A stretch of 40,851 bases of DNA from a virus. Lineage: Duplodnaviria > Heunggongvirae > Uroviricota > Caudoviricetes. The stretch is from IMG/VR virus record IMGVR_UViG_2721755728_000008, one strand, 5' to 3'. Position numbers: made by a program. Positions 27,001 to 33,000 of this stretch are shown one piece after another (within the stretch, counting starts at the first letter, position 1; each line of letters starts with the position of its first letter).

Positions 27001-30000
27001 TCCATCTGATGTATGTCTCCGTCACCGCCGACAGAAAATGAAAGTAAAGGAAAACAAAAAGCCGCCAGTGTCACCCACTGACGGCCAACTCCGGGAGCCG
27101 TGATTATGGCATTCAGGCTCTGCTAAAAATGCCAGATAACATTCCGCCCCCCCTGGTTCAGGTTATAAATGACACAATATCTTGACAACATCCGTCACTG
27201 TCTGTCAGAAAATGTACTGCCAAATATAAGTATCATGTGAAGTACATCTACCCGTTTTAGCCAGCGTCCTTCAGAGTGGGCGCTGGCTTTTTTTATTATG
27301 CTGCCGGTGCATTTATCTCCAGCACCAGACTTTCTATCTCAACGCCATACGCTGCATTTTTTGTAACATCCGTCAGCGTCAGCGCATTCAGTCCCAGTGT
27401 CAGACTGTCTTTTATAACCTGGAATGCCGGGCCAGCCACTCCATTCAGTTTCGGAGTAACCGTGGCACTGCCGGCGGTGAACACCAGCTCCAGCGTCTGC
27501 CAGTCGTTACCGTAATCGCCGAACTCCCCCAGCTTCGTGTTTCCGGCTTTCCTGTGATGCATCAGATTCACTCTGCCGTCAGTGGTCTGAGTGAAGTACG
27601 ACATCAGGAACGGATTACCGGTACCCGTCATCGCCACACCATCAGGAACGGGAGCATCCGTATACAGATAAATCCCCAGCCCGAACTGATTGTTGGTCAG
27701 TGCGCCTGACAGGCGGAACTTACAGGTCAGTCTGCCGCCCTGTGTCAGCAGGGTAATTGCGTCATCCACCGGATGCGTCAGGGACCAGGTTTTATTGCTC
27801 TGCTTGGTGATCTTAAATACACCATCTGACAACTGAATTCCGCCATCCTTAATGCTCCAGCCCTGCGCAGCAGCCTCTCCGGCTGCCGGCAGCAGGGAGA
27901 TTGTGCGAACGGACGTATCTGCAGACGGACCCGATGGCGTGTTGCCGCCGGGCGAGGGTTTGATTTCCGGTGCCTTACCACTGATGAAGGCTGAGGTGCG
28001 CCCGGCTGCGTTCAGAATAGCGGTTGCCAGACGATCCGGAATAATGCTCCTGCGCGCCCATGAACTGAAATGTGTCGGGCGGTTTGATGATACCTGGTTT
28101 CCATTCGTTCTCGATGCCGCACCGTAATATCCTGATGCCGGAATATCCGGATCTTCTGCCGGCGCGTTAGTGGCGGTATTGACGCCGTTACCGTCTGTCA
28201 TGAAGGGCACAAAATAAACGCCCTCACTCTCCCTGTTTTTATACCCGCCGTACACGGTGTCGTACTGGGTAGCGTATGTATTTTTCCAGTAATACGTCGT
28301 GTCACCACAAATCCACGGCACATCTGCAGCACTGCCACCATGGCACTGCGCGTTAAACACGGAGAGGTCAGCACGAAACTGTGTCAGCATGGCTGTAAAC
28401 AGCGCAGGTTGCTGTGCGTGGGTGGCGGCGCTCATGTCAAACTCACCCTGCATCCAGCAGACGGCCAGCAGAACGTTTTTGGGATTTTTCTGCAATGCCG
28501 CTTTTGTGCGGGAAATCAGATCCTGATATAACGGCTTGCCCACCCCCCAGCGTGCCGAATCCTGACTGGCCCCCGTGGACTCGCTGAATGTCCCCTCCGC
28601 GCCCTGGGTAAATGCCGAACCACCACGACAGCATGGTACCAGCAGGATCCCCGCGTTATTCGGGATATACGGGAGCAGTTTTTTGGCAATATGTAAACCC
28701 TGACCGACACAGCCGTACTGCCCTTTGCTCAGGTCAGCCCTCGGATGATTCAGCGTACTCATATCCTGCACATCATGCAGACAGTGGTCAGCCGGAATAA
28801 TATCGTTATATCTGCAGGCAGCCCCGCCCGGCGTCACTGTACTGCGGCGCGCCAGCTGTTTAATGCGCGGATCCGGAGCATCGTATGAATCCGGCAGCGG
28901 AAGCCCTTCACCGTAAGCCATGGCATTGGACTGCCCGGCCAGTACGATGACGTAGTACCAATCCGGCTCAGATGAAGGGCCGACCTGTGGCTCTCCTTCA
29001 ATAGCCACCGCCTGCATCAGTGTGTACGGCGTAATGGCAACCGGTCCGCCATATGGCTGCCAGCCCTCTTTCAGTTTGTGTGTCAGCTTTTCCGCAAGGT
29101 CTGACGGCGACGCCGCCCTGACAACATCATAATGTTTAATCGACATCGAATTTCTCCCGTGTAGAGGAACAGAGTTAAAAAGCCGGAAGCGGAATCAAAT
29201 CACAGGATGACCATCTGCCAGTGGCTGGTCGTAAAAAAAAGGCCGCGCCATGCGCAGCCGAAAATAAAGGGATAACGATGATAGTTTGAGAAAAACAGAA
29301 ATAACACTTTTGTGGCAAAGCATGGTGCCGGGTGCCTCCCGGTGAATTCAGTATCAGCACCTGAATCCGCGATTACCCCATATTCCTTCTTGCTGATTGC
29401 CCCACCGCACAGGGGGATTCACCATGCAGAAGTGTTTTTAATAAACAGCAAACAAAAAAATCAAGCATTATGCAGGCTGTTTCTTTTTATCACCGGCCAC
29501 AGCAATACCATAATGCCGCAGACCAGCACCCCATCCGCCAGCACCGACATGATTCTGCTGGTGAAATCCACCATCACCACCAGAAACAGCAGGAGTGCAG
29601 CCACAGTCAGGCGCAGTTTTACCGTCACAGGTAATTCTCCAGACGAAGACCCAGAACACCGGCAATCTCTTCCAGCACCTTGCGCTCTTCCGGCTCAATT
29701 TCGCCGTCTGCCTCCGCAATGGCCACCGCCACATCCAGCACATCTTCCGCTTCACGCGTATCGTGTTTCACATCCTCGATCTCACGTAACGCCGCACGAC
29801 GACCAGTTTTAAAGTTCGTATCCAGCTGACCGATAATGGTTGCGCTAATCGCATTAATTTCTGACGTAAACGCGTACAGCGCAGGCTGATTACGCAGTAC
29901 CTGTTCGATCTTCGCTTTCTAGGAAGCCTCACATTCACCATCTGCACAGGCCACCAGGTATGCGGCGTTAATCACCACCTGTGCCAGATCGCGTTTTTCA

Positions 30001-33000
30001 AACTTTTTAATTTCCGTTGCCGCTCTGCGGGCTTTTTTTACCAAAAATACCAAACATCGTGACGTTCCTTTGGGTGGGTGAGCCAACGCCCGGGAGCGAT
30101 CTGCCCACAGAGAAAGTCACACTGACCACTCCATAAGCTCCCCCCGAAAGGCTCTGTGGTTGGTATGCGCCGGGCGTGGTGCGGATACAAAAAAGGTCCG
30201 CAAAAGCGAGCGAGGGAAAATAAGTGTGGTGCGTTGTACTGGGTTCGAACCAGTGACCGATTGCTTAGAAGGCAATTGCTCTGTCCGGCTGAGCTAAAAA
30301 CGCAGAATACCGATAATGGACCGCCATCGGAGACTCGAACCCCGCGAAACCAGCTTCGAAGGCTGGCGTTCTATCCCGATGAGCTAATGGCGGTATGTGA
30401 TGGTGGCCCTTGCTGGATTTGAACCAGCGGCCTGGCGATTATGAGTCGCTCGCTCTCACCACTGAGCTAAAGGGCCGGGCGCAGGATAATAACGTTACGA
30501 AATCAATGTTGCAAGCATTCAAGAATCACCTGGTTAAAAATTACCCTTGCTTCCTCCACCAGCGCATTCACCATGTCTATCCGAGATAAGTGGCACAAAA
30601 AAACCCGCTTGTGGGCGGGTTTTGTTTGCTTTTGCCATCACGTACAAAATCGGCAAAATATCAGATTTGCATGAAATATATGCCTTTCAATCTACTTTTG
30701 CAACACTTTGCTTTGAAAATGCCGCCTTTTGTTTTGAACGCGTTCTCATTACAAACAATAAAGCCTCACTATCCAGTCGGTGAAAAATGTGTTTCATTGC
30801 AACCCAGTGACGAGTAAATGTTTTGGACCAGTTTTTAGTTGTCACTCCCACCAGTAATGCCAGCTCCTTGTATTCATAACCTTCCCCACCAAAAAGTTCT
30901 GCTTTTACTGCCTGCGCCGCCAGCCAGATTAATTTTTTCAGGCGTTCCTGCGTTTTCCCTGCAATTTTTCTGGTACCGGATTGAGTATTAAATTCATTCC
31001 ACGCCCACTGTGTTATCGCGATCTGATATTCCCAACAAATACTCCCGCTGTAACACCACAACAACCAGGCTTTATGATGTTCTTCAAGAGACAGAACAGC
31101 CCGCCGCCACGATGATGTCGAAAACTCAATCGGACTGACCAGAGGAATTGACGTCCCCTTCGCCAGCGATTGCTTTCCCGGGATTGGTGGATTATCCCGC
31201 GTTATCATTTTTCCAGTCACTTCATCGCGGTACCGGATTTTTTTACGCCTGTAACGCCCTGTATCGAACATGGCATTCTCCTGCCAGGCTTCAAGCTGAC
31301 CTTTTGTTGCCCCACTCAAATCAGCGGTGGCGATAATGAGCTGCTCACGCACAAACTGTAAATACTGGTTATTCATGCGCACCCCAGTTCTGTGATTTTT
31401 ATCCCCAACCGCCCACCAGGAACAAGCTGACCGCGCACAATATTAATTTCATCAAACTGCTCGTCGTCTATGAGCAGCCCCGCATGCGTCAGTGCATCCA
31501 GTGGTGCCTTCAGGATATTGTCCAGGTCACGACGGCGCTTATCCGGTGGCTCTGCAATAATTTTTATTGCCAGCCTTCCGGACAGGTTTAATTTCAGTTG
31601 CTGCTGGCGAACAATAAGCGCCACATCACGGCGATAACGCTCACCGACTTTTGATACAAAATATGTGCTGCCACGACGCCGCCAGTAGGTGTTCACCGTT
31701 GGCGGGTAAGGCAAAACAAACTCTATACGCATCAGTAACCTCTTTTACCCGAGCACGCCGGTTGCAAAGGCGTGATCAAGAAAACGAAAAATTAAATCAA
31801 TCTGGGAACCATGCTTTTCTTCGAACGCCAGCGGATCCGCATGAAGCTCGTTGTGATGCTCCCGACACAGCGGTAGCGTGAAAATATCGTGGGATTTTGT
31901 TCCCATCCCTCCCTGACCGTGACCAATCAGGTGATGGGGATCGTCGGCTGGCTGACCACAACACGCACACGGCTGTGTCTTCACCCAGCTCGTATATTTC
32001 TCATTTACCCAACGGCGACGTTTAGGTCGCCTCATGAAAGATTCCGGAGACTCCGGATCAACGGTAATGCTGACCACCGCCTTTTCCTGTGCTGGGTTCT
32101 GTGGCTGGTGGGTGTGAAGCAACGGCGCAAGATTTTTTGTGCGCTGCTTCAGTATGCTGGTGGCGGTCTGCTCTCCCGGTACGATGTCGCTTTCGCGGTA
32201 CAAGGAGCGGATTTTTTCCGCACGCAACCCCAGTGAACGACGTAATACAGCTTCCGGTAGCGCGTCCGCCACCTGATTGCGGACCGCCCACCAGGATAAT
32301 TCAGCCAGAGATAATTCCCGCTCCTGTGTGCCATTCATTGCATGGCGTATGACGTCAATCATCCATGCTGACAGGTTTTGATGAGCAAGTTGCCCGAGTG
32401 ATTCAGAGGTCTGGTCACGCAGCTGGTTGTCGCAGTGCCAGCACAACACCATCGCGCCGGTACCGTAACGATGTATGACGGTTTCACTGTGATGATAGTC
32501 ACCATGAGGCCACTGGCAGGATTTGACATGACGCAACAGCCAGTCAGACAGTGCACCAGCGCCGCCAGCAGCACGAATCACCCGCTCATCGCTGAAAAAT
32601 GGCAGTAATGATTTATCCTCCGCCAGCGGCTGGCGAACGGCAGGAACGACTCCGGACGGCAGACCGCGCATGCTTTTTGGTTCCGGCTCCACCAGCACTC
32701 GAGGGTTATGAAATACCTGCATGGATTCACGGCCCGGCTTAAGGACCACCAGCCCAAGTTCCGGTACCGGAACAGGTCGAAGTAATACCCGCACGTTACC
32801 TCCAGATGCGTTGCTGGAATGTGCGGGACGGACGCGGTGGGCGTTCGGAATAAGGGAGCCTGACGTAGATTATCCAGTGACGATAATCGAGGCTGAGGGC
32901 TTTCCTAAACTCATACCCACGCCTGCGGTAGTTCTGAATCAGCCATTCGGCCTGTTCTTCAGTGCATGGGTCATGCTGGTACCAGTCATATTTGAATGCA

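Follow-up and report, generated by a model that had tools for sequence, protein, structure and literature searches.

The closest described counterparts of the locus considered here are the tciA-tciB pairs of the plasmid-prophage P1 and of P7 and D6. P1 TciA belongs to the TerB family and has about 143 amino acids, an MFG..FGKK N-terminus and two acidic DGxxxxxE motifs, while TciB is a DUF3927 membrane peptide of roughly 54 residues; their genes follow each other in this order with overlapping stop and start codons, with a tRNA gene nearby, and the cassette is dispensable for lytic growth of P1, as judged from a CRISPR interference table (PMC10695390). Intact alleles of the same pair also occur in a lambdoid setting (phages JLK-2012, Evi and PPyecE_EH1910, the latter with a 'TciA/TerB-like protein', and the proteins WP_001368722.1 and WP_000466924.1), where they lie after Q and tRNA genes and before an esterase gene, and the homologous genes are annotated as tciA and tciB in the records of JLK-2012, P1, P7 and D6. 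Our literature searches (including DUF3927, and TerB combined with prophage, Shiga toxin or moron) found no functional study of the lambdoid cassette, nor any measurement of tellurite resistance or metal binding for a tciA gene. Here, we analysed the virus record IMGVR_UViG_2721755728_000008, a stretch of 40,851 nucleotides (nt) referred to below as the window, which carries the already-named tciA/tciB accessory ('moron') cassette of a lambda-like E. coli prophage on its minus strand. Very probably, two independent lesions make its tciA a fixed pseudogene, which is decaying in the ordinary way of prophage genes and leaves tciB still translatable.

The identity of both genes is well supported. 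With one A taken out and TAG read as Glu, the repaired tciA encodes a 143-residue protein that matches Pfam TerB (PF05099; 45.7 bits against a cut-off of 24.4, E 9.5e-12) and PHROG 632 from end to end (1-143/143, E 2e-68), and the solved TerB structure PDB 2jxu (chain 2jxu_A) aligns with its residues 15-137 (E 4e-7), a span that holds both acidic motifs. These matches bear out a sequence-only reading of the window, which had proposed a TerB fold and a search with the reconstructed protein. The small open reading frame (ORF) that follows belongs to DUF3927 (PF13064; 60.4 bits against a cut-off of 25) and to PHROG 1470 ('TciB-like'), is WP_000216649.1 in RefSeq, and contains two hydrophobic stretches (about residues 7-20 and 29-47). 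The sequence GTGA (29625-29628) holds both the GTG start of this ORF and the stop of tciA, an overlap that the intact lambdoid alleles share and that has an analogue in P1. Thus, the coupled hydrophobic partner with its own Shine-Dalgarno sequence, likewise proposed from the sequence, is real, although neither the name of the pair nor the pseudogene flag of this tciA allele in RefSeq had been recognized at that point. The window shares with P1 the arrangement of a TerB-type gene and a DUF3927 gene on the same strand with touching stop and start codons, and the identity to the P1 proteins is 52% for repaired TciA and 46% for TciB. In contrast to P1, the cassette resides in a lambdoid late operon, its tciA is inactivated, and the third P1 gene, tciC, has no counterpart; the 31-codon ORF that follows tciB shows no relationship to tciC, and a match to the STnc100 family of small RNAs (sRNAs) takes up 173 nt downstream. 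The TerB of the Klebsiella/IncHI2 ter operon (the 2jxu protein) belongs to the same domain family but shows low sequence similarity, and, unlike it, the window tciA lies outside any terZABCDEF operon, is paired with a tiny membrane peptide and is broken. PADLOC returned no meaningful defence-system match, and NCBIfam only sub-threshold similarity to DjlA and YmfL.

Phages JLK-2012, Evi and PPyecE_EH1910, together with E. coli O103, O145 and DS566, supplied the intact alleles against which the lesions were judged by alignment; the phage records are 88-95% identical to the window in DNA, and the intact proteins 92-97% identical to the repaired one. In the window, the frame opened by the ATG encodes MFGIFGKK across seven consecutive A (30039-30033), goes on as SPQSGNGN and stops at 30009-30007, while the TerB sequence lies in the +1 frame, where it is broken by a TAG (29921-29919) before ending at TGA 29627-29625. 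At the run, JLK-2012 and O145 RM8988 read GGTAAAAAAGCC, i.e. GGT AAA AAA GCC with six A, and the remaining intact alleles read AAA AAG AAA ACC, with AAAAAGAAAA instead of A6; the A7 of the window is therefore a +1 insertion. All seven intact alleles examined have GAG at the position of the window TAG, and, unlike the window, each encodes the full 143 residues from the same ATG. The two breaks pointed out in the sequence-only reading are thereby explained as one additional A and a GAG-to-TAG change, and the positions it had assigned to the ATG, the A7 run, the TAG, the TerB-frame stop and the GTG ORF all hold on the minus strand (Table 1).

The amber codon replaces a residue, E46, that is invariant out to P1 TciA and ends the first DGxxxxxE motif. 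The second motif is intact in the window and the first loses its Glu, whereas both are present in all intact alleles; moreover, owing to the +1 shift at A7 and the TAG, no uninterrupted TerB frame leads from a usable start. The window allele cannot encode full-length TciA, and ribosomes starting at the native ATG would yield a 16-residue peptide only. That the ATG frame is the native N-terminus follows from the first codons of the intact alleles, which vary synonymously in this frame alone (GGT/GGA, ATT/ATC, TTT/TTC). The Shine-Dalgarno sequence AAGGA is kept in all alleles that retain this 5′ end. In addition, the ratio of non-synonymous to synonymous differences per site (pN/pS) is only 0.02-0.15 between pairs of intact alleles, with almost all differences synonymous, which indicates that the ATG-frame gene is real and constrained when intact.

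RefSeq already treats identical DNA as a pseudogene, namely a 'tellurite resistance TerB family protein' with an 'internal stop', followed by a 'DUF3927 family protein'. Its feature begins at TTG 30053, in the TerB frame and 4 nt inside the native ATG ORF, and the frameshift goes unreported. Because the ATG has the better-spaced Shine-Dalgarno sequence (8 versus 12 nt) and the homologues start at ATG, we regard the TTG start as an annotation rescue. The same start codon serves for the allele of E. coli FORC_044 (positions 1548-1976 of locus L006), which combines A7 with GAG and which RefSeq calls intact as the 142-residue WP_001303558.1. In this allele the native ATG opens a frame of 16 codons only. 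Judging from their sequence, A7/GAG alleles would be weakly expressed at best, WP_001303558.1-type proteins probably lack a native start, and for the widespread WP_001303558.1 a wrong start or very low expression is possible; low-level expression of such alleles by +1 slippage is a related but unlikely alternative. The masking of the A7 frameshift by the TTG start is one small new point, the pseudogene and the cassette being already known.

Our genome searches, which show the best place in each genome only, place the broken allele among the most widely shared forms of this locus. An 831-bp stretch of it is 100% identical in 30/30 genomes among the matches listed (complete E. coli genomes from many laboratories), mostly O157:H7 but also isolates from giant panda, cow and pig. 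Of the 649 records that match a 61-mer with the TAG at its centre, 520 match it exactly; for a 95-mer over the start and the A7 run the figure is 553 of 773, and 297 records, most of them O157:H7, hold an exact copy of the A7/GAG 61-mer of the FORC_044 type. Among complete E. coli genomes the amber form of tciA is the most frequent, and the four phage records with a coverage of the locus of 80% or more all have intact alleles. In some genomes the TAG allele is the sole copy, so there is no dependence on an intact paralogue.

The TAG is found on at least three 5′ backgrounds. Besides the window type with A7, it occurs in UTAK-8 (locus L015, about 2534-2965), where A7 is kept and a 1-nt deletion ten bases upstream, from GGTATTTTT to GGTTTTTT, restores the ATG frame (MFGFLVKKARR...) with the TAG still present; here, the compensatory deletion may be older than the TAG, or the TAG may have been gained later by recombination. 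In the third type, found in EDL933, B19374, DEC9B, WL1467 and Z1323HEC (loci L010-L014, about 2400-2826), similarity to tciA begins around codon 17, preceded by unrelated DNA with a different Q gene of 822 nt and no tRNA genes, and these copies thus have no start codon and carry the TAG as well. The combinations seen (A6/GAG, A7/GAG, A7/TAG, TAG on the frame-restored A7 of UTAK-8 and TAG on a replaced 5′ end) are what recombination between lambdoid prophages resident in one host is expected to produce. Among the intact A6/GAG alleles, the nearest is that of O145 RM8988-C1 (locus L016, 1534-1965), with an IS3 element just upstream; it carries two substitutions of its own, D117E inside and R125C just behind the second DGxxxxxE motif, and, from these changes, may itself be functionally impaired.

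Compared with its nearest intact allele, the window differs by four synonymous (Sd) and nine non-synonymous (Nd) changes, giving a pN/pS of 0.70. Of the changes confined to TAG-bearing cassettes, most are non-synonymous or nonsense (A62V and L143Q in tciA; V34G and W44stop in TciB, the stop at W44 being shared by the strains DEC9B and Z1323HEC), a pattern that, small as the numbers are, fits relaxed selection on the whole cassette. Indeed, identical DNA in O157:H7 PV15-279 lies within a clearly degraded prophage, with an integrase disrupted by an insertion sequence and frameshifted terminase, portal, tape-measure and J genes. Several points nevertheless weigh against ordinary decay. The amber allele forms the majority and has reached several prophage backgrounds, which leaves room for some selective value; tciB is intact in most copies (eight of the ten TAG-bearing ones examined); and the 3′ 160 nt of tciA are nearly invariant in nucleotides across alleles. 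Furthermore, the pN/pS contrasts involve very few substitutions, and that no TciA is made and that tciB is still translated are matters we infer from the sequence.

The prevalence of the amber allele in several prophage contexts, the mostly intact tciB and the STnc100 match that adjoins it (at a distance of 5 nt) speak for an alternative in which the dead tciA is kept as an RNA leader for the expression or processing of tciB and of the STnc100-like sRNA, or in which losing TciA while keeping TciB, or TciB and the adjacent sRNA, is advantageous in these hosts. We consider this unlikely, as the other two of the ten TAG-bearing copies carry a nonsense codon in tciB and further copies have non-conservative changes, which fits drift of the whole cassette, and linkage within a recombining block accounts for the spread without selection.

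It is very unlikely that the broken gene acts through a split product, with translation beginning inside the gene, for instance at GTG 29771, and yielding a C-terminal TerB fragment that would work with TciB. The sequence-only reading had excluded a restart on the ground that no Met follows the TAG; this is correct as regards ATG, but a 48-codon ORF with a GTG start, which would include DGEIEPEE, does run in the TerB frame from 29771 to 29625. A separate family of fragments, phrog_3920, matches it over its whole length (1-48/48, E 9e-36), and nucleotide conservation within tciA is highest in its 3′ part. On the other hand, the only sequence resembling a Shine-Dalgarno element, GAGG, lies 2 nt from this GTG, which is too close; PHROG 3920 most likely gathers gene calls made on the same pseudogenes; and, given that the 2jxu match spans residues 15-137, 48 residues amount to part of the domain.

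Less likely still is recoding, in which +1 slippage of the ribosome or of RNA polymerase on A7, combined with read-through of the amber codon, would supply full-length TciA at a low, regulated level. As read from the sequence, a forward move by one base on AAA AAA A would leave tRNA-Lys perfectly paired, and the A7/GAG allele keeps the TerB frame open in many O157:H7 genomes. However, the homologues are in frame at this site, so that the shifted layout is not conserved, and the downstream frame of the window is closed by the TAG, leaving neither of the two marks of a programmed shift; nor does a stop or a rare codon follow the run to stall the ribosome. Efficient transcriptional slippage, too, is known from longer runs than A7. 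Amber suppression would be needed in addition, none of the three phage tRNAs is a suppressor, and in many TAG alleles the 5′ end is missing altogether. The proposal that the tract works as a slipped-strand on/off switch finds no support either: in searches that show the best place per genome, the 95-mer over the start and the tract is exact in most records, and no A6 or A8 variant of the same haplotype was found among the sampled non-exact hits, the near-exact classes sampled being UTAK-8, with its deletion elsewhere, and O145 RM8988, a distinct A6/GAG haplotype. Finally, although homopolymers are error-prone in some technologies and the portal gene of the window carries two indels relative to its nearest relative, a sequencing or assembly error at A7 and/or TAG, also raised in the sequence-only reading, has a negligible probability given that the same bases recur in hundreds of complete genomes sequenced independently in many laboratories.

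We therefore return to decay of tciA as the preferred reading, under which the history and expression of the cassette can be tentatively reconstructed. By family knowledge, the intact pair would presumably act at the inner membrane, with a cytoplasmic TerB domain bearing the acidic motifs and a membrane peptide of two segments. The extra A in the ancestral A6 run separates the TerB frame from its ATG and Shine-Dalgarno sequence, and the GAG-to-TAG change ends that frame at codon 46, the invariant Glu of the first DGxxxxxE motif. In Shiga toxin (Stx) phages, stx is transcribed with the lambdoid late operon, and this offers a model for the cassette, which, lying downstream of Q, a promoter-like site and a hairpin, would be transcribed in the same manner. 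With translation of tciA ending early, tciB would lose translational coupling and rely on its own GGAG, Rho-dependent polarity should be overridden by the Q-modified RNA polymerase, and TciB would probably still be produced, uncoupled from tciA. The broken allele may persist not out of need but through a block of DNA that recombines freely among resident prophages.

The surroundings of the cassette are summarized in Table 1. The order Q, tRNA genes, tciA, tciB, STnc100-like sRNA, NanS-p esterase and lysis genes is that of the late operon of a lambdoid prophage, and the placement of the TerB gene between tRNA genes and nanS-p, as described in the sequence-only reading, is correct.

Table 1. Features in and around the tciA/tciB cassette (positions in the 40,851-nt window)
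Feature	Position	Strand	Remarks
Q gene	30687-31382		upstream of tRNA genes and tciA
Three phage tRNA genes	30227-30476	-	CAT anticodon, Arg-TCG, Arg-TCT; upstream of tciA
Shine-Dalgarno AAGGA of tciA	30066-30070	-	spacing 8 nt to ATG, 12 nt to TTG 30053
tciA pseudogene (TerB family)	29625-30057	-	native ATG 30057-30055; TerB-frame stop TGA 29627-29625
16-codon ORF from native ATG	30007-30057	-	reads MFGIFGKKSPQSGNGN, then TAA
A7 run	30033-30039	-	+1 insertion relative to A6 of nearest intact alleles
First DGxxxxxE motif	29942-29919	-	DGECEAS, then stop; final Glu is the amber codon
Amber codon TAG	29919-29921	-	in place of GAG, Glu46 (143-residue numbering)
Second TerB motif, DGEIEPEE	29685-29708	-	intact, 3′ of the stop codon
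GGAG Shine-Dalgarno of tciB	29637-29640	-	spacer 8 nt
tciB (DUF3927)	29461-29628	-	intact 55-residue ORF, GTG start 29628-29626, two hydrophobic segments
STnc100-family sRNA match	29284-29456	-	RF02076, 100.8 bits against a gathering score of 47
Terminator-like hairpin and T8	29231-29259	-	between sRNA match and esterase gene; consensus scan only
SASA/NanS-p-type esterase ORF	27296-29146		616 amino acids, downstream of tciB

Just after Q, a promoter-like site (30703-30675) is followed by a strong hairpin (30623-30600, minus strand), the layout expected for a late promoter and first terminator; within 30598-30703, Rfam matches are sub-threshold only (isrK 22.7 bits, isrJ 24.5 bits, and leader-peptide families). 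A consensus scan of the minus strand from the last tRNA gene to tciA found no sigma-70-like promoter, and thus there is no evidence for an independent moron promoter. The tRNA gene at 30401-30476 (minus strand) is called Met (CAT) by ARAGORN and tRNA-Ile by RefSeq for the identical gene in related loci, in which case it would be of the lysidine-modified type. An Ile-Arg-Arg trio is usual in Stx-type phages, and the tRNA-Ile call fits it.

The STnc100 match begins on the same strand shortly past the tciB stop and does not cover the terminator hairpin of the family model itself; the sRNA could originate in the 3′ untranslated region of the tciB transcript. According to a 2026 preprint, STnc100 is related to the PasD sRNAs of prophages, and TerB is a conserved neighbour of PasA/PasC sRNAs; PasA is placed there next to the holin/lysozyme genes, and the esterase gene of E2348/69 has PasA on one side and PasD2 on the other. 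A Pas sRNA overlapping tciA was considered as a cause of its retention and dropped, as these locations point to the gap between tciB and the esterase gene for a PasD/STnc100-type sRNA.

As a whole, the window prophage is 99.6% identical to the E. coli C3 prophage at the tRNA-Ser/mtfA/yeeJ site. Relative to C3, whose portal gene is annotated as intact, the portal gene of the window (about 19099-20691, minus strand) lacks 1 nt at 19544 and has gained 1 nt at 20211, neither in a long homopolymer, and these changes together split the ORF into 20190-20690 and 19307-20380. These indels may be real decay or errors of this sample.

For the biology of these prophages, the consequence is that tciB may be the sole remaining protein product of the cassette. 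The analysis cleans up how a very common prophage locus of Shiga toxin-producing and enterohaemorrhagic E. coli (STEC/EHEC) is annotated and otherwise matters little; a broken copy such as this one is a poor place to study the function of tciA/tciB.

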